DNA from: an uncultured Clostridia bacterium
GTDB taxonomy: Bacteria > Bacillota > Clostridia > Christensenellales > Borkfalkiaceae
Direction of reading: 5' to 3'
NCBI GenBank assembly: GCA_947628505.1
Contig: CANRAD010000008.1
Span: 757-64,756 of the forward strand
Length of the DNA stretch: 64,000 nucleotides
Shown: positions 29,269-48,681 of the stretch, one piece after another
Numbering within the stretch: the first letter of the stretch is position 1
Layout: each line of letters begins with the position of its first letter
Program-made: the position numbers and the translations under genes
The notes under the pieces: model-generated
The model's database searches: none
What the model saw: the letters and a program-made list of their open reading frames with translations, nothing else
What the model was told of the DNA's origin: nothing

Positions 29269-29714
29269 AAAAACAGATATACGAGTCCGACTATAACGCC
29301 CGAAAATACGCCGAAAACAATTATGGCTCCCGCGACGGTAAACATTTTGGCCGCCATGCCGTATATCCACCCCTCCGTTTTAAACTCTATTGCCGGCGAC
29401 GTTACGCTGTTGGCGAAACCCGTTATCGGAACTATCGAACCCGCGCCCGCATATCTGCCTATTCTGTCGTATACGCCCAAGCCCGTCAGAAGACAACCTA
29501 TAAAAATCAGTATGACGGAAGTCGAGCCGGCAAGTTCGTCTCCCGAAAGCCCCGCATATCCGAGCATATATCTTATGAACTGCCCTATACAGCAGATAAA
29601 TCCGCCCACGCCGAACGCGGCAAGACAATTCTTGAAATGTTTTGTGGGCGGATCCTGCGTTTTTACATATTCGAGATAATTTCTGTTATAGTTTTCACGT
29701 GTTCTGCCTGTCAT
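29265..29714 (-). CDS. spoVAC: Stage V sporulation protein AC
   Basis: 149-aa four-TM protein with the GSIVPITGFANS motif; first gene of the operon. Confidence 0.88.
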   Translation of the reverse strand: MTGRTRENYNRNYLEYVKTQDPPTKHFKNCLAAFGVGGFICCIGQFIRYMLGYAGLSGDELAGSTSVILIFIGCLLTGLGVYDRIGRYAGAGSIVPITGFANSVTSPAIEFKTEGWIYGMAAKMFTVAGAIIVFGVFSGVIVGLVYLFL

Positions 29715-34649: not shown

Positions 34650-35384
34650 TCAATCGCCGAGTATATGAGGGTTCGCCTCGATTACGCCGGAAATGAATTC
34701 CAAAAAACTTTCTTCGCTCATATCTATCGGCTTGCCGCTCTGCAACGTTACGATATCGTTGAGCTTTTTCCAATAGTTATGATAAGTCAGTTTGCCGTTG
34801 ACTTTCTTTGGACTCACCCGATACCAAAGCGTTACCTTCTCTCCCGTTTTGACGCTGGGACTTGCCTCAGAATTATTCTTGTTTTTTATCTGCAAAAGGA
34901 ATTTTCCGTCTTTGGAACAAAAGTCGATTTCTCTGAGTATGCCGGAAACATACAAAAGTCCGTAACCGCGCGTTTCCCTTGCGATATACTCTTCCAACAA
35001 ATAGCCCTGAACGCTTTCGGCAAGCATATAGTCGTTTCTGGCGGACAGTCCGGCCAAAGCGTCTTCACGGCTTATGCCTCTGACAAGCGAAATTATCTTT
35101 ACCACCGACATATCGTCTGTTACGTTTTTGGGGATTGCCTTATAGTTGTATGCGGTACGGCGGCGCGTAAAATTATAAAGCTCTATCCATGCGTCCACAT
35201 ACTCCTTATAAGTGCGGAAATTAGCGCTTATGTGCGGGAAAAGAGTGTAATCGGAACTATCTACCGCCACTTTGAAAACGGCTTTCGCGTCGTCGATAAG
35301 ATTGTTATCGATGAGAGAATCGGCGACGGAATCGAAGTAGTTTTCGACATCATGCGGCTCAACGCCGAAATTTCTAAGATTCAT
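34650..35384 (-). CDS. Hypothetical protein with restriction-endonuclease-like core motif
   Basis: EIDFCSKDGKFLLQIKNKNNSE is a D-x11-Q-x-K arrangement followed by K-N-N-S, reminiscent of type II REase cores (Eco47II/SinI/DpnII style). No MTase is adjacent. Family not confirmed. Confidence 0.35.
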   Translation of the reverse strand: MNLRNFGVEPHDVENYFDSVADSLIDNNLIDDAKAVFKVAVDSSDYTLFPHISANFRTYKEYVDAWIELYNFTRRRTAYNYKAIPKNVTDDMSVVKIISLVRGISREDALAGLSARNDYMLAESVQGYLLEEYIARETRGYGLLYVSGILREIDFCSKDGKFLLQIKNKNNSEASPSVKTGEKVTLWYRVSPKKVNGKLTYHNYWKKLNDIVTLQSGKPIDMSEESFLEFISGVIEANPHILGD

Positions 35385-35704: not shown

Positions 35705-35780
35705 CGAGGCGTAGCGCAGTTGGTAGCGCGTATGGTTCGGGACCATAAGGTCGTGGGTTCGAATCCCGTCGCCTCGACCA
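35705..35780 (+). tRNA. tRNA-Pro (anticodon CGG), CCA encoded
   Basis: Hand-folded cloverleaf: acceptor cgaggcg/cgcctcg, D arm gcgc-agttggta-gcgc, anticodon arm tatgg-ttCGGga-ccata, T arm gtggg-ttcgaat-cccgt, then ACCA. Confidence 0.92.
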
Positions 35781-35785
35781 AATTT

Positions 35786-35828
35786 AGCCCGTTTTTGAGC
35801 GATTTTCGCCCAAAAACGGGCTTTTTTC
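35786..35828 (+). terminator. Terminator after tRNA-Pro (element-borne)
   Basis: Stem agcccgttttt / aaaaacgggct followed by tttttt. Confidence 0.75.
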
Positions 35829-35868
35829 TGCTGTTTTTAAGTATTATTTGTTACTTTTATTTCTCATT

Positions 35869-35888
35869 TTGGGGCATAAATTGGGGCA
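35869..35888 (+). repeat. Arm-type repeats, left end (2 x TTGGGGCA)
   Basis: TTGGGGCA at 35869-35876 and 35881-35888, just 3' of the integrase stop. Confidence 0.7.
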
Positions 35889-35896
35889 CAAATCGT

Positions 35897-37105
35897 CTAC
35901 CAATTCAATTTAGCCCCCTCTTTCAAAAAAAACTCGTCGGATAGGTCGGTGTATGTATTTCCGAGTTTTCCGAGCGAATGTCCCACAAATATGTCTCTCG
36001 CTACGTCCGCAACGCCACACTCCTGACAGCGGGTGTAAAAAGTCGTCCTCAAATCATACAAACGCTTTTTGGGGAAAATCTTGTGAAATCTCTCCCTTAT
36101 GCGGTTTACACCGTAAAATTTCAATTCATCTTTTCCCTCTAAATAGGGTTTGAGTTTTGCGATTATCGGTATCTTTTTGTACTCCGTTTTACTGCCTTTC
36201 CGCTTGCTGTTTACAGACCTTATGAACGCGCCTTCGATTTTTGCCGTTTCATATTCGTTGGGGCGAAGTCCTGTGTATAGTGCGACCGCAAACATCAATT
36301 GATAGGGCGTTCCCGCCGTATCCGACAACAGCTTTTGTTCTTCCTCTTTGGTGAGAGCCGTGCCGTGGCTTCTTTCGTAGCTCTTGCGGAATACCAGCTC
36401 GATGGGGTTTGAGGAAATCAGTCCGTGCTTTATCGCCATATTGAAAATTTGGTTGAGCATACAGAATATCTCGTCCGCCGTCTTGTTTTTACCTTGCTCG
36501 AACAGGCTGTCTATAAGCGTTTGGCACATATAGGGCGTTATGCTCTTTATGGGCGTATCTTTGAACCTTGTTTTCAAGTGGTTGTTGTACCTGTTCATTG
36601 CGTTTTTAAACGTTTCGGGTGCAACTTTGCGCTTATAGTAGGTCTCGAAAAAGTATTCGGCAAACCCCGTAAAAGATTTGGGAACGGTGTCGGTCTTATC
36701 TCGACCGTACTTCTCGACGTGGTTTAGTTTTTCAATGAATTTTTGCTTTGCTTCTTCAAGGTTGTTTGCCGATGCCGCTATGTTGTAACCGTTGCGGCGA
36801 TAGCGGATTTCGTAATTCCAAGTATCAACGCCGCTTTTACGTTTGCGGACGTAGCAGGTGCAACCTTGCGTTCTAAATTCTTTCCTGAATGTTTTGGGCA
36901 TCTTTGAAATCTCCTTATCGGAAAATTTCAAAGCTGTGCTCTCGGTTAACTTACTGTCTTTTTCGGGCACGGAAGTCAACGCTTTTAGCTTGTCCATCGA
37001 AATGGAATCTGCGGCGGCTTTCAATACAGCCATTGCCATCTCGTCGCTGCCTTCCGGTATCGCCCGTATGGTTTTCAAAATGTTAGATAATTCCTGTTCT
37101 GTCAA
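35897..37105 (-). CDS. Tyrosine-type site-specific integrase
   Basis: 402 aa with an N-terminal arm-binding-like region, a SAM-like core-binding domain and a catalytic C-terminus (GLRPNE..., VGHSLGKLGNTYTD). Adjacent to the tRNA. TAG stop. Confidence 0.9.
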   Translation of the reverse strand: MTEQELSNILKTIRAIPEGSDEMAMAVLKAAADSISMDKLKALTSVPEKDSKLTESTALKFSDKEISKMPKTFRKEFRTQGCTCYVRKRKSGVDTWNYEIRYRRNGYNIAASANNLEEAKQKFIEKLNHVEKYGRDKTDTVPKSFTGFAEYFFETYYKRKVAPETFKNAMNRYNNHLKTRFKDTPIKSITPYMCQTLIDSLFEQGKNKTADEIFCMLNQIFNMAIKHGLISSNPIELVFRKSYERSHGTALTKEEEQKLLSDTAGTPYQLMFAVALYTGLRPNEYETAKIEGAFIRSVNSKRKGSKTEYKKIPIIAKLKPYLEGKDELKFYGVNRIRERFHKIFPKKRLYDLRTTFYTRCQECGVADVARDIFVGHSLGKLGNTYTDLSDEFFLKEGAKLNW

Positions 37106-37210
37106 TTCTCCTTGTTGTTTTATTTGTGAAGCGGTATGTTCTACCGCTTGAAATACAGTTACTATGTCCTCTCACCATATTCACAAAAGTTCCTCCTTAA
37201 AAATATTTTC

Positions 37211-37366
37211 ACGCAAATCTCGGCTATTCTGCGCCTGCGATTTGCCGTGATTTTCGGCGGCTCTGCCGCCCTTTGCGCAATTTTTAAGCGCAAACAATTA
37301 TATAATTGCGCAAATTCCCACCGCCGAGGCGCAGGTATACGCAAATTGTGTTGCGCTGCGCAAAAG
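37211..37366. repeat. Cluster of (T/A)YGCGCAAA / ACGCAAAT motifs between int and mob-like gene
   Basis: Copies at 37211-37219, 37273-37280 (palindrome TTGCGCAA), 37288-37294, 37306-37314, 37339-37347 and 37351-37366. Confidence 0.6.
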
Positions 37367-37514
37367 CGTGGTTTTGCTTGCGCCGTCAATTATTACTCAG
37401 TTGTGATTCAGTTGTAAGATATACCGTAACAATATGTTAATACGATATATCACAGTTCGCTTGATTTGTCAATAGCTGGCGCGAAAATTTTTGAGGGTAG
37501 GTCAAACTTAAATA

Positions 37515-38276
37515 TCAAAATGGGCTGTCGTCGAAGTAAAGCTCGTCATAGAGGTCGCCCTCAAACCTGCCATAGCGTTCCTGTTGCCGAAGGGTGGTAT
37601 TCTTGATTAGAGAAAAGCTCTCGCCGCGGACTGCTCCATATTTTTTGGATACTTTGATATAGAAATCTTCCTGCAAGTCCGAATAGGAAGTCAACCCGCC
37701 GCGCGCCTTCCAAAACTCCGAATGGGAAAGCAAGGGGTCGTCTATTTCAATGCGTTGCCTATACATAGGCGTATTGTACTCATCGCGCAGTTGAAGTCTG
37801 TTGCCCGCTTCGCTTTTATCATTGCTCATGATCTTTTCTTGCCACACTTCCGTAATTGGTAGATAGTAGACAAAGAGATTACGTCTGTTCGGCTCGGTAA
37901 CGATCACGGCGCAGATGATGTTCTCATGTGTGCGTAAGAAGCCTATTTTGTCTATGGCGTAGGCATAGCACTTACGGAAGTACACCTTTATTTCTTCTTC
38001 GTCGGGGAAGTCATCCCAAAACTCTCTGTTGCCGCCAAATTGCAGACACTCCAAGACAATGTTCTTGCCTCGGTTGTTGAATGTTGCATTCGTAGACTTC
38101 ATCACTTCGTTCCACGCCTGTTCGGTTGTGGACATTTTCTTTAAGTATTCTACCTTGTACCGCTGTTCGCAGTCTTTGAGGTATTCGTCTATATTCACAA
38201 ATTCGTTTTTCTTGTGTGCAATAACGGAAATGGTTGCGTGCTTGTCCCGTGGATACTTCTGTTTTGGCATTCCCAT
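37515..38276 (-). CDS. Mob_Pre (MobV relaxase)-like protein with degenerate metal-binding motif
   Basis: ECLQFGGNREFWDDFPDEEEIKVYFRKCYAYAIDKIG...ENIICAVIVTEPNRRNLFVYYLPIT aligns by eye with the MobM/Pre core ...ATVHNDEQTPHMHLGVVPM, but the HxDE..PHxH histidines are absent. Confidence 0.4.
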   Translation of the reverse strand: MGMPKQKYPRDKHATISVIAHKKNEFVNIDEYLKDCEQRYKVEYLKKMSTTEQAWNEVMKSTNATFNNRGKNIVLECLQFGGNREFWDDFPDEEEIKVYFRKCYAYAIDKIGFLRTHENIICAVIVTEPNRRNLFVYYLPITEVWQEKIMSNDKSEAGNRLQLRDEYNTPMYRQRIEIDDPLLSHSEFWKARGGLTSYSDLQEDFYIKVSKKYGAVRGESFSLIKNTTLRQQERYGRFEGDLYDELYFDDSPF

Positions 38277-38325
38277 TTTGTTTTCATAATACTTGTAAAT
38301 CTTGTTTCACCTCCTTTTGAGGGCA

Positions 38326-38360
38326 GAAAAAGCAGTCCTTTGTTCAAGGACTGCTTTTTG
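38326..38360. terminator. Bidirectional hairpin
   Basis: Stem gcagtcctt / aaggactgc flanked by A- and T-runs. Confidence 0.65.
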
Positions 38361-38429
38361 TTATAGTTTTCCCCTCCATATATAAGCCGCGGGAACGCCG
38401 AAAATATTAGTCATTACGAAAAAATTTTT

Positions 38430-39491
38430 TTATTTCTTCAAACTTTTGCCTGTATAGTATTTATAAAACTGCCTTATTCGTTTGTTTCTCCACTTGGCTA
38501 AGTAGGGATAAAACCTTTGCGTTAAAAATTCTTCCACACCTATGTTTAACCGCGACGTAATCTTTTCCACCGCCGAAAAGACGCTGGTATAGAGCTTATA
38601 AGATTCCCTTAAACCTATTTCCTTTCTGCGTTCCATCTCTTTGCATAGACGGATATATACCGCTCCTACAATAGGCGGTTGGTCGCCGTAGTAATCATAG
38701 TAATGTTTTCTATCTTCCTCGCTTGCTGTTTTAAGATACTCAGCTATCTCGCCGTCCATTTTGTCGTTGTCAAAATAGTAATAGGTAAGTATATGCCGGA
38801 ACAGCTCGCCCACGCTGTAAAACCAGTGCAGGAACGGCATTAAGTCATTAAAGAGCGCACGGAGGACAAACTCCAACTCTACGTCGAGGAAGTAGGGCAT
38901 CTCGCCGTCGTTTACAAATCTGTTCCAACAGTGCCAGACGATTTCCTCCCGCGTTCCCGTATTGAATACATAATCGTCCACAGAACAGTTTGCATGTTTC
39001 AGTTGTGTTGAGATATATCCCTGCGTAACGCCAAGCTCCTCGGCGGCTTCTTTCTGCGTTTTTCCGCTTGACATAATCTTTAAAATATCTCTGTCCTGTT
39101 GCGGCAAGTTGGCAAACAGAATTTCTCTGTCGCGCCGCTCGTCTGCAAGTACATTGAACGGTATGGACTTATCTATTCTGCGTTCCCGTTGCTTGGGTGT
39201 TAATTCGTCCTCGTCTTTGTCTGAAAACCGAACGGTATGGCGTTGGTACTTATGGGTATTGTTGTATTCCAATCTGTCCAGCTCAAACAGAGCTTCCCAT
39301 TCCTGTTCGTTGACTTCAATGACGATATACGGTCTGCCGTTGATATAAGTATTGGGTGAATCCGATTCGGCGCAGGGATAGTAATACAAGAATTTACCCG
39401 CCGTTTTTGCTGGTTTTTTCTTTTTATTATAATGGTACGCCAATTTATCCATAGCGCTATTATAACAAATAAACCTGCCCGAACTCGGCAT
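38430..39491 (-). CDS. Sigma-70 region 4 / LuxR-type HTH protein of mobile elements
   Basis: LPQQDRDILKIMSSGKTQKEAAEELGVTQGYISTQLKHA is a region-4-type HTH. The likely start is MDKLAYHY at 39452. Confidence 0.6.
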   Translation of the reverse strand: MPSSGRFICYNSAMDKLAYHYNKKKKPAKTAGKFLYYYPCAESDSPNTYINGRPYIVIEVNEQEWEALFELDRLEYNNTHKYQRHTVRFSDKDEDELTPKQRERRIDKSIPFNVLADERRDREILFANLPQQDRDILKIMSSGKTQKEAAEELGVTQGYISTQLKHANCSVDDYVFNTGTREEIVWHCWNRFVNDGEMPYFLDVELEFVLRALFNDLMPFLHWFYSVGELFRHILTYYYFDNDKMDGEIAEYLKTASEEDRKHYYDYYGDQPPIVGAVYIRLCKEMERRKEIGLRESYKLYTSVFSAVEKITSRLNIGVEEFLTQRFYPYLAKWRNKRIRQFYKYYTGKSLKK

Positions 39492-39668
39492 ATATTAAAA
39501 ATTTTTTAGATAAATTTTGAACTGAAATTCTTATTTTTCTTATGCAACAAAAGAGGGCATCTTTTTGATGCCTAAGCAGGATAAGGAAGGTGGTATATCC
39601 CCACCTTCGTCCCAAACAAGCGGGAAACCCGCTTTTTGGGAGAATCAAATTATCGACAATACAATTCG

Positions 39669-39697
39669 TTGATATTCGACAGAAAATATGTTATAAT
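39669..39697 (+). promoter_or_regulatory. Promoter of the nuclease gene (extended -10)
   Basis: TTGATA (39669-39674), 17 nt including a TG, then TATAAT (39692-39697). GGGAG RBS before the ATG at 39733. Confidence 0.65.
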
Positions 39698-39732
39698 ATA
39701 ATTTAAGTTTTTATATTGGGAGAAATGAAAAC

Positions 39733-41115
39733 ATGAATAACTTGTGGATACTCACAGAAGAACGCCCTAAAAATTCTGTGATTTTAGCTATTTTACAGGA
39801 ATACTGCAAACTGAAAAATAAAGAACTCAAAGTATCTGAAATCAAGATTTTGCCAAAAGCGTTGGATAGAAAATTTTTGTTTGAGTATCTCGTCGAAGGT
39901 GCGCACATAAATGATATATCCGAGATTAACATAAAGATAGTTAGCGGCTATTCAAGTTTTATGGATTATATGTTGGTTGATCAGGAAAAAGCTCCGGGAA
40001 ATCATGCTCTTGACAATATTATATTCTTGTTGGAAGAAACAAAAACCAGTGATGCCGAATCTCGAAATACCGGGATTGGGCAAAGAGCATCGAAATTTGC
40101 ATACGCAAACTATTATTGTCCCGACGTGCCGAAATATATGCTTTACAATGAGGAGGCGACTCCCGATGTGGGTAAAACCCCAACACAAACGAACACATTT
40201 GGGACAAACATGCTACTAACTCAAGGAGTAAGGTTTATTGGAAAAACAATGACGCCCTTTTGCGCATTCACCTCGATAGACGAGCTTATTGACTTTAAGG
40301 GTAAAATGCATTTGCCCAATAAAACTAATGTGCCGATTTTGATTAACAAAGTAGGCGATTCTAAGATTACCATTTCAGGACGTTTATCAAAGCCCAAAGA
40401 TAAAGGAAATATCGGACACGATCCCAACATCGGGACGTTAACCTGCATAGCGAGTACATTAAGAAAACTTGGTTGGGACGGAAAAATTGTCATCACGAAA
40501 CATGGGGTTTCTCAATCCTATGCGACTAAAAACAGTAACAATAAGTTTATTCGTATCTGCAAAATACTTGGTATAGAATTAGATGGAATAACCCTGCCAG
40601 CCAATATAGAGTTGCCTAAACATTATTGGCAATATGCTATGTCATCGGAAAAGGTAGCTTCGATTTTGTTGCATATCACCTGTCAATACGCAGGAATCCA
40701 TGGAATATACGAAAATCATGCGGGTTGTGAGAGAAGTTATTTTAGGGAAGCGGATGGCTCTTTTACGACATTACATAAGAAGGATGCGGGAGGAGAAGAT
40801 AATCTATTGCTTCCGGACGTAGTTCTTCGAAACGACGAAGCAAAAGAGATATATGTTGTTGAGGGAAAAATGTTTGATAAACTCGGACAAGGATTATCGG
40901 ACATTTTGGGATACGATGCGATTGAGAATGAGCATATAAAACGAAGTTATCCAGATTATACAATCACAAGATGGGTATCTCTGTTCGGTGGGACAGAGAA
41001 AGAAATCCCCCATGAAAAAGTATTGATCTATTGCAATCTCTATGGTGATGTAATGATCAATCAAAACGCTCCCGATGGCGTTAAGGAGGCTTTCCGCAAA
41101 GTAAAATTATATTAA
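39733..41115 (+). CDS. Putative restriction endonuclease with two PD-(D/E)xK-like sites
   Basis: N-terminal MDYMLVD-x17-LLEETK and C-terminal LLLPD-x13-VVEGK motifs. Converges on, and overlaps by 4 nt, an MTase gene. Confidence 0.6.
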   Translation: MNNLWILTEERPKNSVILAILQEYCKLKNKELKVSEIKILPKALDRKFLFEYLVEGAHINDISEINIKIVSGYSSFMDYMLVDQEKAPGNHALDNIIFLLEETKTSDAESRNTGIGQRASKFAYANYYCPDVPKYMLYNEEATPDVGKTPTQTNTFGTNMLLTQGVRFIGKTMTPFCAFTSIDELIDFKGKMHLPNKTNVPILINKVGDSKITISGRLSKPKDKGNIGHDPNIGTLTCIASTLRKLGWDGKIVITKHGVSQSYATKNSNNKFIRICKILGIELDGITLPANIELPKHYWQYAMSSEKVASILLHITCQYAGIHGIYENHAGCERSYFREADGSFTTLHKKDAGGEDNLLLPDVVLRNDEAKEIYVVEGKMFDKLGQGLSDILGYDAIENEHIKRSYPDYTITRWVSLFGGTEKEIPHEKVLIYCNLYGDVMINQNAPDGVKEAFRKVKLY

Positions 41116-42095
41116 TACTTGCGAAAGATCAATATATATTGGTGAATTTGATTCGCAACATAATCGAACGGATATCCGTAGGGGAACAGCTTTACGGTTT
41201 GATCTGCCCATATTTTCAAACCGCGGTAATATAGCCGAGGGATTTCGTTTAAAGTGGTTGCTATTTCCGCATGTAGCATATGTAAATCTTTTTTCTTGGG
41301 TTGCAAATCTTTGCAAAAAATGATGAAATACCCCTTCTCTTTCAAGAAATACAAAGATTTCTCTACAATGTTCTTTAACGTCATTAAAAAATCGTCGTGA
41401 GGCATGTTCCCTATATCCAACGCAGAGTCTGTAAAAGGAGTGGCACGATTACCATAAATTGCAACATCGGCTCCTGTTTTGGGCTTGGACATCATATTTG
41501 AGTATGGCGGGTCAATTAAAATAAGACCCGCTTTTTCATTTTTCAACAAGTTATTTATTTTATTTGCATCAGACAATAACTCATTGCAGTCCCCAATCAA
41601 ACAAGGTTGAATTGGTAATTTTAACTCCGTCGCCGCCGCTTTATATGCATTAACGTAATCGGAGTTCAAATCTATACCTGCGCCACGTCGGTTACATAGA
41701 CTTGCACCTAAAAGAGAACCGCCAACGCCCATAAAATAATCAAATACGATTTCATTCTCTTTTGTGAAGAATTCAATGATATCTCTCATTAGCTGCGGAG
41801 GCTTTGGGGTAGGGTGAATTCGCCTGATATTATGAGCAAAACTATCCGCGCCTTTTGTAGAGTATCGCGTATTAATAACAGAGCAAATATATTTTGTCCA
41901 TTCTGCCCCTGCAAGATCATTGATCGTATTGTCCAAGCTGTATCGTCGTCCATCTGATAGTTCGATTGTTCGTTTGGCACTTCCTATAATACGAGCAGTA
42001 TCTAGTTCAGCCTTCACCCAGTTGGGCAAACTTTCTTTCTCCGCATCGGAAAGATAATCGACCGCCAAAATGTCCATCTTTATCTCTTCACTCAT
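41112..42095 (-). CDS. DNA methyltransferase (amino-MTase, DPPY)
   Basis: Motif I FDYFMGVGGSLLGA and motif IV LILIDPPYSNM. Confidence 0.8.
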   Translation of the reverse strand: MSEEIKMDILAVDYLSDAEKESLPNWVKAELDTARIIGSAKRTIELSDGRRYSLDNTINDLAGAEWTKYICSVINTRYSTKGADSFAHNIRRIHPTPKPPQLMRDIIEFFTKENEIVFDYFMGVGGSLLGASLCNRRGAGIDLNSDYVNAYKAAATELKLPIQPCLIGDCNELLSDANKINNLLKNEKAGLILIDPPYSNMMSKPKTGADVAIYGNRATPFTDSALDIGNMPHDDFLMTLKNIVEKSLYFLKEKGYFIIFCKDLQPKKKDLHMLHAEIATTLNEIPRLYYRGLKIWADQTVKLFPYGYPFDYVANQIHQYILIFRKY

Positions 42096-42104
42096 AATAA
42101 GACC

Positions 42105-44060
42105 TCAATAATTAGTTACTAACACCTCAATAGTTTCAGCATCTTTATTCTTTCGTTGATAATTGCAATTAGAGTAATCGCTTTGAATAATATGAGTCTT
42201 ATATTTCTGTGACCATTTTTTTAATATCTCATTTTCTGCGCCCTTATGTTTGATCATATTAGAAAGAGCAAACTTAACGCCTTGGTTGTTTGCGGCATCT
42301 AAATATTCGTACAGTGCATGTTCTTCTGCATCTTGCCAATCATGAAATCCGCGATTCCCGTCATTGTATGACCCATTCGTAATCAAGTAAGGCGGATCAC
42401 AATAAATGAAATCCCTATCATTTAAGCCTATCAAAGAAATTTCTCTGAAATCTCGCGTGAAGAACTCCAGATTTTTCTGCTTCATTGCTTCCATAAAAAG
42501 AATAAGGTTTTTTCGCATTACGTCCGAGAATTGGCTTCTATTTCGACCGAACGGGTTGTTATACTCTAAGTTGCTGTTGAAACGAAACTGATAATTGAAT
42601 GAGTAACACGAAAGAGTAAATAGGTCAATCGGATTCCTATTTTGATTATAAAAATCTCTAAACGCTTTGTATCCCGCCTCATTTTCTTTTGAAAGGGAAT
42701 ATTCATTAATTTTTTCTTCTATCCGCTTTAAAAGCAGATCTATATCTGCATAGCATAATGTCCTAACCATTTCTACAACGATATAATTTAGATCATTGCA
42801 GACGGTTTTGTTAGCAGTAACATTCGCAGATACATTAAAACCACCCGCGAACAAATCAATAAATGTATTTATGTTTTGCGGGAATAAAGGAATTATTTGC
42901 GGTAAAAGTTTATATTTGCCGCCTATATAATTCAAAGGGCTTTTTATGAAACGCTTTTTATCTATATTGTCAGCTATTTTTATCTGCATAGGCATTATAG
43001 CTGTTCTTTGATACTCACGCTCAAGCTTTTTCTTGGCGTAAAATATATACTCATTGTGAGGTTTATCATTTTGCCCAAGTTTACCTTTATATCTCGCATA
43101 TGGTATGTCGTATTGTTTAATGCTACCGATAATGCAATGCTTGGACAGGATTTCTTTTATTTGATCGACACTCAATAATCCATCGTCACTATAACTTATA
43201 ACTATATGTCTAAAATCTGCATTTTCAATAAGGTCATCGAATGCATCATAAACTTTTGTCTTAACGCAATAATTTGATTTCTCATGATTATATGGTCTTA
43301 CGCCCGTTACGCCCGAAAGAATAGGCGCATCATACTTGGCTACCGTTTCCAGCAAATGATAATTCGGCAAATATTGTCTGTCGTTATAGGGCGGATCTAT
43401 ATATAAGATATCTCCGCTTATTTTTTTGATTAATTCATTTGCATCCTCATTATAGCAAATATTTCTTCTGCCATTATCGCTGACAGCTAGTTTATATAAC
43501 TCAAACCGCTTAAACGCACGCTTATCCCATTGTTTTAGATAAGCGCCATATGTTCCCGTTATGTTGGAAACAAACGGAATCCCCTCAATTAAACACGCAA
43601 GCAAGTATTTGTACTCGTAGGCATCAATCCACTTTTTTGTTTTCCAATTCTCAATCGTTTGCCGAATGAAATCAATTCGCTCGGCATTCACATCAGTTAA
43701 GTACATTCTGCCGGCTTGTCCTTTGGGGGAATATGCTTCTGTTACAAATCCATTTATGAGGCAATAAGGAATCTCCTCTGATTCCAAATATGCAACCGGA
43801 TCAGCTATACCGTGCTTTTTTAATGTATTAAACTGAGGCACGACGTTATTCTCTATTGTTGATGCAGTAAGCAAATAAGAAAAATACAATAGATCATTGC
43901 TGATTATTTGATAATACGGTTTGAAGTATCTTGAAACCGCTCCTGTGCCGGAAAAGATATCGCAAAAGATTTCATTTACGCCATCGCAGTTCTCGTCGAT
44001 GACCTGCTTGATATTGTCTAAAAGATTGACTTTGCTTCCAATGAATCTCATGTTCCACAT
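42105..44060 (-). CDS. Fused double D12-class (Dam-type) N6-adenine DNA methyltransferase, M.FokI-like architecture
   Basis: Two complete MTase halves: MRFIGSK...FCDIFSGTGAVS...LYIDPPYNDRQY, then PLNYIGGKYKLL...FIDLFAGGFNVS...IYCDPPYLITNGSYN. The likely start is MRFIGSK at 44051. Confidence 0.85.
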   Translation of the reverse strand: MWNMRFIGSKVNLLDNIKQVIDENCDGVNEIFCDIFSGTGAVSRYFKPYYQIISNDLLYFSYLLTASTIENNVVPQFNTLKKHGIADPVAYLESEEIPYCLINGFVTEAYSPKGQAGRMYLTDVNAERIDFIRQTIENWKTKKWIDAYEYKYLLACLIEGIPFVSNITGTYGAYLKQWDKRAFKRFELYKLAVSDNGRRNICYNEDANELIKKISGDILYIDPPYNDRQYLPNYHLLETVAKYDAPILSGVTGVRPYNHEKSNYCVKTKVYDAFDDLIENADFRHIVISYSDDGLLSVDQIKEILSKHCIIGSIKQYDIPYARYKGKLGQNDKPHNEYIFYAKKKLEREYQRTAIMPMQIKIADNIDKKRFIKSPLNYIGGKYKLLPQIIPLFPQNINTFIDLFAGGFNVSANVTANKTVCNDLNYIVVEMVRTLCYADIDLLLKRIEEKINEYSLSKENEAGYKAFRDFYNQNRNPIDLFTLSCYSFNYQFRFNSNLEYNNPFGRNRSQFSDVMRKNLILFMEAMKQKNLEFFTRDFREISLIGLNDRDFIYCDPPYLITNGSYNDGNRGFHDWQDAEEHALYEYLDAANNQGVKFALSNMIKHKGAENEILKKWSQKYKTHIIQSDYSNCNYQRKNKDAETIEVLVTNY

Positions 44061-44390: not shown

Positions 44391-44618
44391 ATGACTCATT
44401 TATATATTGTTAGATTAAAAGAAAATAGTTATTATGCAATTGGATATGTAAACCCAAATTCAATAGCAGAAATTGAAAAACTATTACATGAATTATATAT
44501 TAAAAACATACAAATGAAAGAAAATAAATTTTTTAAAACATTCATTAATGAAACTTTTAAAAAATTTAATATACAATTAACTCCAATAGAAATAGATTAT
44601 GTTTTTCGGTTCAAGTAA
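44391..44618 (+). CDS. Hypothetical 75-aa protein in AT-rich cassette
   Basis: AAGGCGG RBS 7 nt upstream of the ATG. Its stop abuts the stop of the convergent DGQHR gene. No recognisable motif. Confidence 0.4.
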   Translation: MTHLYIVRLKENSYYAIGYVNPNSIAEIEKLLHELYIKNIQMKENKFFKTFINETFKKFNIQLTPIEIDYVFRFK

Positions 44619-46346
44619 TTAATCTTCGATTTCGAAAACTTCTTTTAATATTTGTGTAGCAAATTTATGATATTGGCTAGAAGTATAAGGAAATTTATCT
44701 TTAGAAAAATCAAATTGCCAATTTTTAAATTTTTCATCATAAAAATCAAAGTCTTTAATACCAAAATATTTCAATTGACGTGTTAAAGCTATAATAAATC
44801 CATTTATGGATATTACTGAAAGCAACTTAGAATCATTATCTTCCCAAAACTTTTTTAAATTTTTCTTTATAGCACCGAAATATACATTTATTATATTTAC
44901 ACAAAATTTAACATAATTATTTAAAGTTTGCTCATTTCCGCTCATCAAAAGATTTATATCACCGTCCCAATAGTTAATTAAACTGTCTCTACCTTCTGAC
45001 ACATCAACGGTGACTAAATAACGTAATGCAAATTTAACTATTGATGCTGTTTTTATTTTAGCCTTATCAAGAGAAGAAATTTGCAATAAATTGTAGAAGA
45101 CATTGCACTTATTGAGCTTTTCAATTACGAACTGGGCAATACTTTCACTGTCAAGTGGATTTTTAATACGTTTAATCTGCAACAACACATTTTGTGGTAC
45201 AGCTTTTGTGTTTGAATTTATATCCAAAAAAATTTCACTTTGTATTTTTGCTCTTTGCTCTACGCAAATATTTTTTGGAAAAATCAGTCCTGTGACCAAT
45301 AAATGAAGTTTAGGTCTAAGCTCAGCAATCTTTCTCTCTTGCTTACTGTCTATTCCACTTTCATAATGAGCATAAACCCTATGCTGCCCATCGATTATGC
45401 ATATGCTATTCATTTCTTTGGGAATTATCAGTTTACAATTTTCTTCAAAATTTAATATTTGATCTATTGATTGATAATTTCCAGCAGCATCTTGAAAAGT
45501 TACATTATCAGGTAAAGCAACAATAATGTTATTGTAAAAAGCTTCGCCTTTATTTTCCAAAAAATCTCTTATTTTTTTAATTTTATTTTTATCTATTAAT
45601 CTTTGATAAAGCCAAATAGAATCACTCCAATTATCTTTCCTAAGAACATAGCATGTGCTTAATAAGTCCTCGGCGGACATCATAAACGAAACAAGCCTAA
45701 CCCCATTAGTTATGCCGGTAAATTCGCGAGGATATATTATCGGTGCTTTAATTGTAGCGGAACCTGTTGAACTTGAAATTAATCCGATATCGCTATCTTG
45801 TAAATTAAGGAATCTGAATATTTCATATCTGGCCGTACGCTTAATGCAACCTACAACCCATTTAAAATAATTAAGTGTTTTAGGTTGCACAAATTTTAAA
45901 TTATTATATAGATAAATGTCATTTTCATCTAAATTAAGTTCTTCTTTTGGTATATATAGGCAATATAATTTTAATCTTTCTAAATCAAATTCACTAAATA
46001 AATCTTTTTTATCAGGAAATTGCTCTTCTAAAAATTTTACGAATTCAGATAAATTGTGTTTTATTTCCCCAAAAGCTTCGTTTTTAGTTCTTATATGATC
46101 ACGATTATTTGAGGAAATTGTATCTTCGCATAAAATCCAAATATTTTTATAAATAAAAAGTGAATCGACTTCAACCTTTCTATATCCAATTGTCGCTTCT
46201 TTTCCACCTGTTGCAACATAAATAAATCCTGCTTCAGTAAAAACATTCTTTATTTTATTCTTTAAAACGCGCTTTTCTCTTTTTTTTATTAAATCTGCTA
46301 TTTGCTCTTCAGATAATATTTTTTTCTTATGTTTTCTTTTTTTCAT
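44619..46346 (-). CDS. DGQHR domain (DndB-like, ParB/sulfiredoxin fold) protein, 575 aa
   Basis: ICIIDGQHRVYAH is encoded at about 45378-45392. AGGAGG sits 7 nt before the ATG at 46346, and the start overlaps the MTase stop by 20 nt. The N-terminal ~200 aa and C-terminal ~200 aa are unassigned. Confidence 0.75.
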   Translation of the reverse strand: MKKRKHKKKILSEEQIADLIKKREKRVLKNKIKNVFTEAGFIYVATGGKEATIGYRKVEVDSLFIYKNIWILCEDTISSNNRDHIRTKNEAFGEIKHNLSEFVKFLEEQFPDKKDLFSEFDLERLKLYCLYIPKEELNLDENDIYLYNNLKFVQPKTLNYFKWVVGCIKRTARYEIFRFLNLQDSDIGLISSSTGSATIKAPIIYPREFTGITNGVRLVSFMMSAEDLLSTCYVLRKDNWSDSIWLYQRLIDKNKIKKIRDFLENKGEAFYNNIIVALPDNVTFQDAAGNYQSIDQILNFEENCKLIIPKEMNSICIIDGQHRVYAHYESGIDSKQERKIAELRPKLHLLVTGLIFPKNICVEQRAKIQSEIFLDINSNTKAVPQNVLLQIKRIKNPLDSESIAQFVIEKLNKCNVFYNLLQISSLDKAKIKTASIVKFALRYLVTVDVSEGRDSLINYWDGDINLLMSGNEQTLNNYVKFCVNIINVYFGAIKKNLKKFWEDNDSKLLSVISINGFIIALTRQLKYFGIKDFDFYDEKFKNWQFDFSKDKFPYTSSQYHKFATQILKEVFEIED

Positions 46347-47247
46347 ACTTTTTCCTCCTCGCCAAAGCAAATTCTTTAGGCAATTTCGCGACAGCCATTT
46401 TTTTATCCGGTTTCATTACAGGTTCATCTTTCCTATATTTTACAACACCGTTTTCAGTGTCAATTAATCGTTTTTCAGCAATAGAAAAATATTCTTCTTT
46501 AATTTCACAACCTATAAAATGTCTTTTTTCTAATATTGCAGCCACCCCAGTTGTTCCGACCCCCATATAAGGATCCAAAACCACTCCGCCCTCAGGAGTC
46601 AAAGCTTTAATTAATCTTTGAGGGATTGAAACCGGAAACTGACAAGGATGTACAGTTTTTTCAATATGATTGGCTTTAACATTTGGTATTTCCCAAACAT
46701 CTGAAGGGTTTTTGCCAAGTGGATTGCCACTTAGCTTACCCTTATTTTTACCTTTATAATAGCGCTTACCTGGATATTTCTGTGGGATTCGAACATCATC
46801 TAAATTAAATTCATAATCTTTGCCTTTTGTAAACCATAGAATGGTTTCGTGGCGTCCACTAAATCGCTTAGTACTATTTAAACCATGACCGAATGTCCAT
46901 ATAATCCTGTTCCTTAAAATTAAAGGGGCTTCATTGTTATTGCTTAATGAATTAAACAGTTCATACACAATATAATCTAAGGGAATTATCTGATCTTTTG
47001 TCACATGATAACCAGTTTGCCAACAAATACTTCCTCCTACTTTTAATACCCTATAAATATCACTTAATATTTCCTCATGATGCATTTTAAAAGCTTTTAT
47101 ATCATCTTTAGAGTCTTCATAAGCCTTTTTCATGCAATAAGGAGGAGAAGTAACAACTAAATCTACAGATTCGTCCGGCATGCTTTTTAATTTATCAGCG
47201 CAGTCGCCATTAAATAAATCAAAATTATTATGTATATATGAATCCAT
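46327..47247 (-). CDS. Beta-class DNA methyltransferase (N4-cytosine or N6-adenine; SPPY)
   Basis: Motif IV DLVVTSPPY comes before HPCQFP and motif I LDPYMGVGTTG. Start reset to MDSYIHNN. Confidence 0.85.
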   Translation of the reverse strand: MDSYIHNNFDLFNGDCADKLKSMPDESVDLVVTSPPYCMKKAYEDSKDDIKAFKMHHEEILSDIYRVLKVGGSICWQTGYHVTKDQIIPLDYIVYELFNSLSNNNEAPLILRNRIIWTFGHGLNSTKRFSGRHETILWFTKGKDYEFNLDDVRIPQKYPGKRYYKGKNKGKLSGNPLGKNPSDVWEIPNVKANHIEKTVHPCQFPVSIPQRLIKALTPEGGVVLDPYMGVGTTGVAAILEKRHFIGCEIKEEYFSIAEKRLIDTENGVVKYRKDEPVMKPDKKMAVAKLPKEFALARRKKYEKKKT

Positions 47248-47458
47248 TTTTTCATATCCTTTTGTTTGGCTTAATATAATTATACAATATAAGTAATTTT
47301 TCAGCAAGTATTCACAATAAAAAATATTTTTATATGTCAAATAGATAAAAATTATTTTAAGAGCTACTATAAAATTACACCTTAACTACATCTATAAGAT
47401 CACAAAAAACATTTTAACACTTCGAATAATGTTACTACTAAATTTAGTAATAAACCTC

Positions 47459-47655: not shown

Positions 47656-47680
47656 TTCAAATCCCGTCGCCTCGACCAAA
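47656..47680 (+). repeat. attR: displaced tRNA-Pro 3' end copy 2
   Basis: 24 of 25 nt identical to 35758-35782; followed by its own terminator hairpin at 47681-47720. Confidence 0.9.
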
Positions 47681-47863
47681 GTTTCCCCGTGCAACTAAAT
47701 TTTGCACGGGGAAACTTTTATTAAGTGATTATCGACGGGATTCGAGGGTGGAGACGCGAGCGAGAGCGAGCGGTTTGCGTTTAATAGCTCGTAAACGGTC
47801 AAGTTTGAAACGCAAACCAAACAGTGCAGTGCACTGTTTGTCGTGGCGCGCCGCCAAAGGCGC

Positions 47864-47883
47864 AAATCCCGTCGCCTCGACCA
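47864..47883 (+). repeat. tRNA-Pro 3' end copy 3
   Basis: aatcccgtcgcctcgacca is identical to the tRNA 3' end; followed by the hairpin gcaaagcccgcaggcac-tttt-gtgcttgcgggctttgc (47884-47921). Confidence 0.85.
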
Positions 47884-47924
47884 GCAAAGCCCGCAGGCAC
47901 TTTTGTGCTTGCGGGCTTTGCTGT

Positions 47925-48000
47925 GTACAAGTGATAAGGTTTGAAATTGCGTCTTAATGCCCTCCAACCATACGCGCTATCGCGATTAGGGTTCCCGAAA
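47925..48000 (-). pseudogene. Inverted, decayed tRNA-Pro-like fragment
   Basis: Minus strand 47966-47979 reads tagcgcgtatggtt, identical to tRNA positions 35724-35737. The flanks align with many transitions, and the T arm no longer pairs. Confidence 0.6.
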
Positions 48001-48208
48001 ATCGCAACGAAGCGAGATTTTTGGGGAAAGGAGCCGCAACGGAACAAAATACGCCCTTGCCGCTTGCGGGAAAGGCGGAAAACGCAGTTTGCGGCGACGC
48101 GGTTCGGAGCCATAAAGTGGTTATTATTACTCCATATTTTGCAAGATATACAGCAGGTGCGGCGTTTGTTATTTAAACGCCGCACCTGCCATTTTAAAAT
48201 TAAATAAT

Positions 48209-48681
48209 TCATTCTTTATCGGTTAGCAAGTCCTTTAAGAGCATACCATCGGCTGTTCGCCAACAAACTTTGCCATTACGGCTTCCGCCTGCAACAAACG
48301 CAGCGGCCGCCGAGCTACTCTCAAATACAATATCTTCCGTCAAACAACCATCGCAAAATTATCGTTAAAACGAGCAAGTAAACAATCTGGTATTCTTATT
48401 TCCTTGTCAAACCTGTACGGCAATTCAAGTCGCACAATACTTGTGTTCAACTGAATCATAACGCGAGAATCAATTATAGGTTGTCCTTCTGAATCTACAC
48501 CCGTAATGCCCGTTGAATACATAATTAGCGGACCTATTGTTTGATAGCCCTTTGCCTTAATCCAATTCATTAACATTGTTATTTGCTTGTCCTGATTTAA
48601 TAGCTCTTTTTCAGGAACTTTTCGTGAAAGAACATTTGTAAGTTTTAAAACTTTATTTTCTCTGAATTCTATCTTAGGCAT
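48209..48681 (-). pseudogene. Junction of two gene fragments (GyrI-like N-part; DUF4357-like tail in another frame)
   Basis: ORF 48340-48681 (MPKIEFRENKV...GPLIMY...IRIPDCLLARF) stops prematurely. A different frame (48209-48394) encodes ...EDIVFESSSAAAAFVAGGSRNGKVCWRTADGMLLKDL, with no start codon. Confidence 0.45.

Follow-up and report, generated by a model that had tools for sequence, protein, structure and literature searches.

A methyltransferase-linked DGQHR protein with a predicted PD-(D/E)xK fold: a candidate restriction-modification cassette in a tRNA-Pro island of an uncultured Clostridia bacterium

The window analysed here is a stretch of 64,000 nucleotides from an uncultured Clostridia bacterium. 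It contains a compact cassette of three genes (positions 44391-47247, Table 1): a beta-class DNA methyltransferase (M), a 575-residue protein with a DGQHR domain (R) and, facing them, a 75-residue accessory gene. The GC content of the cassette, computed on the window, is 29.1%, versus 39.9% for the remainder of the tRNA-Pro island (35793-44060) and 47.5-48.1% for the flanking chromosome. In 300-nt windows, the values are 20-36% across about 44.0-47.5 kb and 49-54% thereafter. The AT-rich block, which an earlier, sequence-only reading had judged by eye, is therefore borne out by counting. Because the 3' end of the tRNA-Pro gene recurs downstream, the 11.9-kb island is att-flanked and has the cassette as its last module. 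The island genes that were examined comprise an integrase, two unassigned open reading frames, one type II restriction-modification (R-M) system and the cassette; the R-M system, which is complete, adjoins the cassette. A third, degenerate att copy is present at 47861-47895. The promoter-like element in front of the methyltransferase gene may be the cassette promoter. Its -10 sequence and surroundings are common to the upstream regions of two homologous loci (L005 and L003), and it is absent from the consensus scan list because its -35 sequence matches three of the six consensus bases.

Table 1. Features of the cassette and its surroundings (positions in the window)
Feature	Position	Strand	Remarks
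tRNA-Pro	35705-35780		
attL	35758-35792		3' end of tRNA-Pro
Integrase of the island	35897-37105		
75-residue accessory gene	44391-44618	+	convergent with the 575-residue gene, stop-to-stop
575-residue DGQHR protein gene	44619-46346	-	ATG at 46346, stop ends at 44619
C-terminal all-helical domain	44619-45026	-	residues ~441-575 plus stop codon
DGQHR putative NTPase core	45027-45749	-	residues ~200-440; ParB/Srx-fold, DndB/DpdB-like
DGQHR motif	45378-45392	-	also QR pair Q248-R249 and F373xxxN377
N-terminal domain	45777-46346	-	residues 1-190; Lys-rich tail and predicted PD-(D/E)xK fold
Candidate active site	46164-46166; 46119-46127; 46083-46085		D61; E74-x-T76; K88, respectively; also H84
M-R junction	46327-46360	-	ribosome-binding site GAGGAGG (46360-46354) in the 3' end of M; overlap 46346-46327
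Beta-class methyltransferase, 306 residues	46327-47247	-	ATG at 47247, stop ends at 46327
Promoter-like element	47279-47307	-	TTGCTG, 17 nt, TATAAT; ~30 nt upstream of the methyltransferase ATG
attR	47656-47690	+	bounds the cassette-bearing island; directly repeated 3' end of tRNA-Pro (35 nt, 89% identity)

The methyltransferase has its motifs in the order TSPPY (motif IV), HPCQFP and DPYMGVGTTG (motif I), and its assignment to the beta class is confirmed by a match to the full PF01555 profile (2.6e-58, profile positions 1-221 of 221). The PADLOC model MTase_II is matched at 6.6e-74, the best PADLOC matches being type II models, and the nearest solved relatives are M.RsrI (2.8e-34), M.MboIIA and M.PvuII. 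In at least 50 homologous loci, the methyltransferase shows 63-75% identity. The SPPY motif suggests N4-cytosine methylation, with N6-adenine methylation also possible. The end of the methyltransferase gene and the start of the 575-residue gene overlap by exactly 20 nt, and the ribosome-binding site precedes this start as had been read from the letters alone. Overlapping or closely spaced M-then-R junctions are seen again in homologous loci, and the junction may couple translation of the two genes.

The 575-residue protein contains ICIIDGQHRVYAH, and the DGQHR signature recognised earlier is confirmed by TIGR03187 (3e-28, 99.4 bits, cut-off 58.85) and accompanied by a match to PF14072 (32.5 bits, cut-off 29.1). 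In an alignment of 84 diverse homologs, R236, Q248, R249, R260, D319, Q321, H322, R323, R344, F373 and N377 are invariant; the described hallmarks (PMC4619093), i.e., the QR pair, the DGQHR sequence D319-R323 and the FxxxN motif formed by F373 and N377, show no or almost no variation. The ParB-fold core is modelled poorly by AF2 (pLDDT 45-60), so that the case for NTP-dependent dimerisation is one of analogy. The C-terminal domain is predicted to be helical, with pLDDT values of 81-95. The roughly 200 residues on the C-terminal side of the DGQHR domain, left unassigned before, are covered by TIGR03187 (residues 215-522) and TIGR04172 (residues 221-552), making them part of the helical domain of the DGQHR family. 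Only Y478, W501 and S557 are nearly invariant in this domain among the 84 homologs, the alignment of which contains no conserved EHxxP/His-Me nuclease motif there; a Pfam search gave no match to DUF262 or DUF1524. No obvious target-recognition domain was located in the 575-residue protein.

Residues 10-190 are modelled with confidence (pLDDT about 85-93) and have the topology alpha-beta-beta-beta-beta-alpha-beta, with a helix at 13-38, four strands in 42-76, a second helix at 82-97 and a last strand at 126-133. The PD-(D/E)xK core (alpha-beta-beta-beta-alpha-beta) is present in this predicted fold. The best Foldseek matches in the PDB are PD-(D/E)xK nucleases throughout, including the R.BspD6I small subunit, Cdn1/Can2, VC1899, R2 RLE, Bax1 and N.BspD6I; for the top eight, the probability is 0.6-0.99, with E-values of only 0.04-0.4, which are borderline. 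Among the structural matches in the BFVD, some are named 'Restriction endonuclease' and others are PDDEXK-like. No substitution of E74 or H84 occurs among the 84 aligned sequences; D61 is invariant in a 32-sequence alignment of the N-terminal domain, with conservation of 90% or more in the larger one. Conservation is also 90% or higher at N68, T76 and K88, and the family-wide pattern is D61...E74-x-[TS]76...H84...K88. Residue 76, at the canonical place of the (D/E)xK lysine, is Thr or Ser, and the nearly invariant K88 plausibly stands in for the missing lysine. A residue other than lysine at this position has established precedents: BamHI has Glu there and BglII has Gln.

Sequence profiles of known nuclease families do not match the N-terminal domain. 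A profile of its 32 sequences matched no PDB sequence at E<=10, hhalign against an HsdR N-terminus was negative, and PDDEXK_10 was touched by just one of the 32 members, at 0.0033. The sequence-only reading had seen no recognisable PD-(D/E)xK nuclease in the block, which holds for sequence profiles but not at the level of the fold, as judged by AF2 and Foldseek. The segment VEVDSLF...ILCEDT, which it had left uncalled, lies in core strands of the confidently modelled PD-(D/E)xK-like domain. From the model we infer that residues 1-190 are a PD-(D/E)xK-type nuclease candidate. Because the N-terminal domain offers such a candidate, the DGQHR module is more likely to be an NTP switch or a DNA-handling part than the cutter, and the earlier case for the ParB fold as effector, made for want of a nuclease, is not supported.

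At the other end of the cassette, the TAA of the 75-residue open reading frame directly abuts the reverse-complement TAA of the 575-residue gene, the stop-to-stop arrangement described before. Among 64 loci whose downstream sequence is long enough, a profile search placed a convergent homolog 7-109 nt away from the aligned R end in 37 and detected none in 23; in four further, redundant loci (L063-L066), an IS element lies between the 75-residue gene and R. Loci without it include Campylobacter, Actinomycetota, archaeal, plasmid and phage members, all keeping M and R. The open reading frame is a real gene, conserved in one large clade, and it evolves fast: its mean column identity is 27%, where R of those loci has about 60-79%. 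The protein is modelled at a pLDDT of 94.5 as a beta-beta-alpha-alpha-beta fold, for which a structural search gave no match, and it has no family in Pfam, NCBIfam, PADLOC or PHROG. A controller (C protein) of the helix-turn-helix (HTH) type was considered and rejected, given this predicted fold and the lack of a match to any HTH family.

A close homolog of the window methyltransferase (50-75% identical) lies immediately upstream and on the same strand in 52 of 58 homologous loci. Three more divergent loci adjoin a distant PF01555-type methyltransferase with 25-30% identity, which is divergently oriented in two cases, and in the remaining three a contig end cuts the flank. All ten distant relatives (27-44% identity) have a PF01555 neighbour (1.7e-15 to 1.7e-54), which may be upstream, downstream, convergent or divergent; such neighbours are also present on a Rhizobium plasmid and in the Akkermansia phage Chantilly. 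A PF01555 gene is adjacent wherever the flanks of an examined homologous locus can be read, at identities as low as 27%. The suggestion that the methyltransferase might be a conserved neighbour is upheld, and this adjacency and co-inheritance support the place given to the 575-residue protein, that of R in an M-then-R pair. Across loci, M is 63-72% conserved versus 41-79% for R; higher conservation of M is usual in R-M pairs of one specificity. The family reaches Firmicutes, Campylobacter, Actinomycetota, archaea, plasmids and phages, with 1445 clusters at 90% identity (E<=0.001, among 8000 candidates scored) and 181 clusters at 50% identity (E<1e-30), and full-length members share the architecture of about 575 residues. 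Neighbouring genes include type I hsdRMS, LlaJI R-M, AbiEi/Eii, HipA, integrases, TnpV, transposases and prophage genes, placing the pair in defence islands, as had been suspected, and also in mobile elements. The cassettes are AT-richer than their flanks almost everywhere.

The cassette resembles type II R-M systems such as RsrI, PvuII and MboII in having a small stand-alone beta-class methyltransferase beside a single-polypeptide candidate endonuclease, in its overlapping M-then-R operon and in its mobility, AT-richness, defence-island location and horizontal spread over phyla. It differs from them in that the R candidate is matched neither by REase models in PADLOC nor by RE_* families in Pfam, in the 380-residue DGQHR/ParB-fold module of this protein and in the conserved 75-residue gene where an HTH controller is usual. 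We know of no characterised type II enzyme with a DGQHR/ParB-fold module. A DGQ[HQ]R ParB-fold NTPase and a nuclease, the latter predicted here, are also joined in one polypeptide in GmrSD, BrxU and SspE, which are NTP-stimulated defence enzymes (PMC4619093, PMC12707154). However, the domain order is reversed, with the nuclease-like domain of the 575-residue protein N-terminal, and the predicted nuclease fold is PD-(D/E)xK, with no EHxxP motif, instead of the His-Me fold of the DUF1524 domain that follows DUF262 in those enzymes. In addition, those enzymes are modification-dependent or phosphorothioate (PT)-sensing and have no cognate base methyltransferase, whereas the 575-residue family is always methyltransferase-linked. 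In the absence of DUF262, DUF1524 and a His-Me motif, membership of the GmrSD/SspE/BrxU group was rejected.

With DndB and DpdB, the protein shares the QR pair, DGQHR, FxxxN, the helical C-terminal domain and a gene position beside a DNA-modifying enzyme. Unlike for these, and consistent with what had been noted for the window, no dndCDE, dpdA or TGT genes accompany the cassette in the island or in the annotated homologous loci. Identity with DpdB was rejected on its NF041060 score (50.2 bits, 300 required), the modest PADLOC DpdB match (3.9e-14) and the lack of a TGT-like neighbour in the annotated homologous loci; identity with DndB was rejected on the lack of dndC/D/E among the genes examined in the island and in the annotated homologous loci. 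The TIGR04172 score, 49 bits, is likewise far below its cut-off of 450. ParB-superfamily DGQHR/DUF262 domains have been described as 'often fused to HNH, PD-(D/E)xK or HEPN' and 'linked to R-M systems', and operons of ParB-like nucleases with DNA methylases, as well as COG1479/DGQHR-nuclease fusions, have been noted (Makarova 2013, PMC3632139; Anantharaman 2013, PMC3710099). These statements are generic, and the present architecture, its obligatory PF01555 partner and the 75-residue gene are not described there. A literature search found no published work on the family, experimental or descriptive. The earlier remark that no system of this composition has been described stands as far as papers on it are concerned. 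R-M-linked DGQHR/DUF262-nuclease fusions had, however, already been noted (PMC3632139), so the composition has precedents, although it is uncharacterised.

The gene order, the overlap, the domain content, the conserved residues, the strict methyltransferase linkage and the mobile and defence context lead us to favour, with reasonable but not high confidence, a self-contained, horizontally mobile R-M-type cassette that is probably NTP-gated. A single promoter would drive the methyltransferase and then, via the 20-nt translational coupling, the 575-residue protein. The methyltransferase would mark a sequence of the host DNA and thereby protect it. The 575-residue protein would be the restriction subunit, its N-terminal PD-(D/E)xK-fold domain cleaving DNA through D61, E74, H84 and K88. 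This putative cutter would be governed by a DndB/DpdB-like module, made up of the ParB-fold DGQHR NTPase and a helical, DNA-encircling domain. DpdB is an ATPase stimulated by the DpdA-DNA complex and has been modelled to encircle DNA via its helical C-terminal domain (PMC10164549), and a DndB-like protein binds ATP and GTP (bioRxiv 10.1101/2025.10.10.680097). Most likely, the DGQHR module would dimerise with NTP and load on or scan DNA, and cleavage would most likely be licensed only at sites without the methyl mark. The 75-residue protein may modulate the system in its clade, restraining R either as a protein or by convergent transcription. It is conceivable, although we would not expect it, that the cassette represents a new mechanistic restriction class, in which the DGQHR NTPase is an NTP-gated clamp or scanner coupling methyl-mark reading to a PD-(D/E)xK cutter. 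The same reserve applies to the idea that it would replace the helicase or AAA+ motors of type I, type III and McrBC enzymes; possibly, a Mod/Res-like complex with the obligatory PF01555 methyltransferase would be formed, and the previously unseen 75-residue fold would tune the system.

The characterised DGQHR proteins, DndB and DpdB, both serve modification modules, not restriction, which counts against a restriction role. DndB is an ATP-modulated repressor that limits phosphorothioation, and DpdB is an ATPase aiding preQ0 insertion by DpdA (PMC4507180, PMC10164549). The 575-residue protein could likewise be a modification accessory or regulator that loads, targets or throttles the methyltransferase, with an N-terminal domain that binds DNA but does not cut it, and the pair an orphan or anti-restriction methylation module. 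Phages and prophages often fuse ParB-fold domains to PF01555 methyltransferases (bioRxiv 10.1101/2025.10.10.680097), prophages and one phage genome carry members of the 575-residue family, and position 76 lacks the canonical catalytic lysine. Nevertheless, D61, E74 and H84 show little or no variation even among homologs of 25-30% identity, which is more typical of catalysis than of a degenerate DNA-binding domain, the minimal unit travels in defence islands beside other R-M systems, and small type II-like methyltransferases otherwise need no 575-residue helper. We therefore regard both the accessory role and the orphan module as improbable.

Two further possibilities, improbable even when taken together, would refine the preferred R-M reading and do not contradict it. 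The 575-residue protein, having no recognition of its own, might form a Res-like complex with the methyltransferase as Mod, with the ParB-fold NTPase in the place of the helicase, as in a type III system; or it might, like SspE, sense the host methyl mark and respond with NTP-driven nicking of invading DNA. The partner belongs in any arrangement to PF01555, the family of type III Mod, the M-then-R overlap recalls mod-res, no obvious recognition domain is seen in the 575-residue protein, and SspE, GmrSD and BrxU combine a DGQQR ParB-fold NTPase with a nuclease and are NTP-stimulated (PMC12707154, PMC10164549). However, the methyltransferase is short (306 residues) and most similar to type II models in PADLOC; the M-R complex is a proposal only, and co-inheritance alone could account for the constant methyltransferase family. 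A selfish post-segregational-killing module of little defence value, with the 75-residue protein as a labile antidote or nuclease inhibitor, appears very unlikely. The tight linkage, convergent orientation and fast evolution of the 75-residue gene (27% mean column identity) and the strong ties of the cassette to mobile elements would fit such a module, but because the gene is undetected in 23 of the 64 loci, including members that retain M and R, its product is not an essential antidote. R-M systems are, moreover, known to be addictive and defensive alike, so these roles are not exclusive.

Proteins of the family are currently labelled only 'DGQHR domain-containing protein' or 'hypothetical'; the architecture is widespread in gut bacteria and nowhere annotated as a restriction enzyme. 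If the cassette is indeed of the R-M type, more than 1000 protein clusters, most of them belonging to Firmicutes of the gut and rumen, would be restriction enzymes missed by defence-finding and annotation tools, and their partner methyltransferases would currently be miscounted as orphans. The ParB-fold NTPase switch, known so far from chromosome segregation, GmrSD/SspE and DpdB, would be extended to methylation-protected restriction. A two-gene system would also become available for studying the DGQHR domain, the role of which in Dnd and Dpd is still debated; were the new-class proposal correct, it would be the first tractable model of DGQHR function in both. The cassette is a likely barrier when transforming gut Clostridia and a possible source of new enzyme specificities.

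The cassette is an operon in which M, the 306-aa methyltransferase, is followed by R, the 575-aa DGQHR protein and candidate restriction subunit, and the two genes overlap. M is intact, with its motifs in the beta-class order (TSPPY, HPCQFP, DPYMGVGTTG); its nearest solved relatives are M.RsrI, M.MboIIA and M.PvuII. The R reading frame starts with an ATG at 46346, seven bases past GAGGAGG, and shares exactly 20 nt with that of M. An earlier, sequence-only reading had described a methyltransferase-first minus-strand operon with this overlap into an AGGAGG-led frame, and a 75-aa ORF lying stop-to-stop with R; these and the other sequence features it listed are all found where it placed them.

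Features of the window discussed in the text
Feature	Position	Strand	Match or remark
SpoVAD gene	28270-29370	minus	PF07451, 8.8e-133
244-aa ORF	34650-35384	minus	Pfam RE_SinI (SinI restriction endonuclease), 4.8e-13
tRNA-Pro 3' end	35758-35792
Tyrosine integrase	35897-37105		within island
Second complete R-M system	39733-44060		same island
Circularly permuted PF01555 methyltransferase	41112-42095		PDLC03391, 1e-124
651-aa fusion of two D12/Dam domains	42105-44060		PDLC03287, 9e-256
75-aa ORF	44391-44618	plus	its TAA lies immediately against the reverse-complement TAA of the R gene
M, methyltransferase, 306 aa	47247-46327	minus	PF01555 over entire profile, 2.6e-58
-10 region of the cassette	47284-47279		conserved
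tRNA-Pro 3' end, recurrence	47656-47690		89% identity
tRNA-Pro 3' end, third copy	47861-47895		degenerate; 205 nt past attR

The GC content of the cassette (44391-47247) is 29.1%, against 39.9% for the remainder of the 11.9-kb island and 47.5-48.1% for the chromosome around it, which bears out by computation what had been called by eye. At 300-nt resolution, the AT-rich block extends from ~44.0 to 47.5 kb. At nearly every homologous locus the cassette is likewise AT-richer than its own flanks, which marks it as a unit that moves horizontally. Its own -10 region is common to two of these loci, L005 and L003. A promoter scan gave no enrichment over shuffles, the terminator-like sites from the scan fall outside or within coding regions, and tRNA was the sole match of an Rfam scan. 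The third tRNA-Pro 3'-end copy, with the core AAATCCCGTCGCCTCGACCA, is possibly a remnant of an earlier island at the same insertion site; the surrounding positions, 47690-48300, have a GC content of 49-54%, hold nothing but short overlapping ORFs and match no Rfam family.

Among 8000 candidates scored, the R family comprises 1445 90%-identity clusters at E<=0.001. In a 50%-identity library, 747 representatives match R, 181 of them at E<1e-30, and the full-length members have the same length as R and align with it end to end. Linkage to M was counted at 58 loci, made up of four metagenome places and 54 loci fetched from genomes of Clostridia, Bacilli, Campylobacter concisus, Kiritimatiellae, Actinomycetota, Acholeplasma, Izimoplasma and Methanosarcinales. 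A close M homolog (50-75% identical) lies directly upstream on the same strand in 52; three more divergent loci adjoin a distant PF01555-type methyltransferase (25-30% identity, two of them divergently oriented), and the remaining three are cut at the contig end. All ten further distant R relatives (27-44% identity, mostly on prophage contigs) also have a PF01555 neighbour, placed variously upstream, downstream, convergently or divergently, as do relatives on a Rhizobium plasmid and in Akkermansia phage Chantilly, annotated just as 'DGQHR domain-containing protein' or 'hypothetical protein'. A pairing that persists through rearrangement and deep divergence points to functional coupling, and the placing of the DGQHR protein in the R position beside a methyltransferase was right. 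Among loci with the window-type methyltransferase, M is 63-72% and R 41-79% identical. The unit sits in mobile and defence contexts, with type I hsdRMS (directly upstream), LlaJI R-M, AbiEi/AbiEii and HipA among its neighbours, together with integrases, TnpV, transposases and prophage genes; no Dnd, Dpd, PAPS-reductase or TGT families occur in the loci surveyed for neighbours.

In one locus, L056 (7117-9722 of CP091722, an Oscillospiraceae chromosome), the alignments of M and of the DGQHR gene are each broken into two or more pieces, suggestive of frameshifts; the cassette there appears to be decaying, with the small gene still in place. The SpoVAD gene in the window makes the host an endospore-forming Firmicute, which fits the nearest cassette homologs being from Clostridia and Oscillospiraceae.

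Judged from profiles and alignments, the C-terminal two-thirds of R (about residues 200-575) is a DndB/DpdB-like module with its DGQHR part intact. R contains ICIIDGQHRVYAH and scores 99.4 bits against the curated cut-off of 58.85 for TIGR03187 (DGQHR domain), and it also passes the curated Pfam DndB threshold, so that the DGQHR signature first picked out by eye holds. In an alignment of 84 homologs, reaching down to 25-30% identity, the Q248-R249 pair, D319-G-Q-H-R323 and F373xxxN377 hallmarks are invariant, as are R236, R260 and R344. The last 135 residues are confidently predicted by AlphaFold2 to form a helical domain. Orthology to DndB or DpdB was rejected: the DpdB and TIGR04172 equivalog models give about 50 bits where 300 and 450 are required, and the partner genes are missing. 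R is a DGQHR-superfamily protein distinct from both DndB and DpdB. DpdB is built equivalently: it is a ParB-fold ATPase that forms homodimers and is stimulated by the DpdA-DNA complex, and its helical domains have been modelled around a positively charged, DNA-sized tunnel (PMC10164549); a DndB-like protein binds both ATP and GTP (bioRxiv 10.1101/2025.10.10.680097).

The N-terminal 190 residues of R, unassigned in the sequence-only reading, are probably a PD-(D/E)xK nuclease fold, as deduced from the predicted structure. The AlphaFold2 model of this part (pLDDT 85-93) runs from a long helix through four strands and a helix to a further strand. When the full-length model was compared with the PDB using Foldseek, the top of the list consisted almost exclusively of PD-(D/E)xK nucleases (R.BspD6I small subunit, Cdn1/Can2/VC1899, R2 restriction-like endonuclease, Bax1 and N.BspD6I), which can align only to the N-terminal alpha/beta domain. 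The eight best matches have probabilities of 0.6-0.99, with E-values of only 0.04-0.4. A library of viral models agrees, with entries named restriction endonuclease or PDDEXK-like among the matches. The segment over which the sequence-only reading had hesitated forms core strands, with D61 at the start of one and E74-x-T76 at the end of the next. Across the 84 aligned sequences, E74 and H84 never vary; D61 is invariant in an N-terminal alignment of 32 sequences and at least 90% conserved among the 84, a level also reached by N68, K88 and T76 (as Thr or Ser). The canonical Lys is missing at its usual place, and a conserved Lys lies one helix turn off. Other residues do occur at the canonical position, such as Glu in BamHI and Gln in BglII.

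The claim that the block holds no recognisable nuclease was wrong at the level of fold, although no sequence profile recovers one. The full-length R sequence gave a sole, spurious match (E=1.3) among PDB chains, and the N-terminal profile gave none among PDB sequences. Pfam scans of the 32 N-terminal domains returned scattered noise (PH-domain matches) and one PDDEXK_10 match, hhalign of the N-terminal profile against the HsdR nuclease domain was negative, and PHROGs matched no part of R. R resembles no characterised restriction-enzyme model in Pfam or PADLOC; PADLOC, candidate-system models included, gave only a weak DpdB match.

The 75-aa gene has a different distribution. A single-sequence search with its product found only itself, and relatives are detectable only with a profile built from the loci. 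With that profile, a convergent homolog was found 7-109 nt from the aligned R end in 37 of the 64 loci with enough downstream sequence, and in 41 when four redundant loci (L063-L066) from one gut lineage are included. In these four, a Transposase_mut IS (about 10857-12104; 3236-4483 in L066) is inserted exactly between R and a 73-aa accessory gene, both of which are intact; here the small gene would be naturally uncoupled from R. Another locus, L035, has a second, diverged copy at 11193-11384 (minus strand; profile search ORF 11190-11378), 1.9 kb downstream of the first. The small gene is fast-evolving (mean column identity 27%), and its product is modelled with a pLDDT of 94.5 as a beta-beta-alpha-alpha-beta fold without meaningful structural neighbours in Foldseek or a family in Pfam, NCBIfam, PADLOC or PHROGs. 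Conservation and the confident fold rule out a chance ORF, and the lack of an HTH rules out a C protein (HTH controller). The profile did not detect it in Campylobacter, actinobacterial, archaeal, plasmid or phage members, and it also went undetected in a few Firmicute loci, which makes it a clade-specific accessory and not a core component.

We consider it fairly probable that the cassette is an R-M-type unit whose R is a fusion of a nuclease fold with the DGQHR module, working in the manner of type II R-M, possibly type III-like. M would methylate a specific sequence, the SPPY motif favouring N4-cytosine. R would dimerise via its ParB-fold domain upon NTP binding, its helical domains may hold or scan DNA, and the PD-(D/E)xK domain would cut where the methyl mark is missing. 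Translational coupling could stop R outrunning M, and the small protein, or its convergent transcription, might tune R. By analogy, such an NTP switch is plausible; that R acts as an NTP-gated clamp is a tentative proposal, on which we lean towards doubt.

R could instead be a modification accessory in the style of DndB or DpdB, whose module it resembles, but we think this unlikely. That R works in a type III-like or SspE-like way, dependent on M or on the mark, we also think unlikely; this is partly a refinement of the R-M reading. Least credible, and very improbable, is that the unit serves mainly selfish addiction, the small protein acting as antidote; this is weakened by the absence of a detectable small gene from many members that have M and R.

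The logic of a ParB-fold NTPase plus a nuclease is common to R and to GmrSD, BrxU and SspE. R is not a member of these groups, since it has a different nuclease fold, a reversed domain order and a cognate methyltransferase that is always present. A GmrSD-type type IV enzyme was rejected for R, which lacks the His-Me domain and has its constant methyltransferase; the DraI m4C system (PMC10855626) uses a GIY-YIG enzyme and has no relation to the cassette. COG1479/DUF262/DGQHR domains have been described as 'often fused' to HNH, PD-(D/E)xK or HEPN nucleases and as R-M-linked, and operons of a ParB-nuclease with a methylase were noted earlier (PMC3632139, PMC3710099). A literature search, with REBASE outside its scope, found no description of the R family, of its obligatory PF01555 partner or of the 75-aa gene, and no experiments. 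The sequence-only reading knew of no described defence system with this composition; in view of these fusions and links, the system is less without precedent than it supposed. The cassette is best read as an uncharacterised restriction-modification variant, missed by current annotation tools; its type is not categorically new. The family is widespread, cleanly delimited and within reach of a handful of standard experiments.

Other restriction genes occur in the window. The RE_SinI ORF is located immediately beyond the island, flanked by housekeeping genes (SDR, thymidylate synthase, DHFR) on one side and tRNA-Pro on the other. No methyltransferase gene turned up among those checked on either side, and the ORF is apparently a lone restriction-enzyme homolog. 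The second R-M system has a 460-aa plus-strand restriction enzyme (PADLOC REase_II PDLC03445, 4e-57; no Pfam family) convergent with two methyltransferases. Some type IIS systems are laid out with a pair of methyltransferases, one being a double Dam fusion.
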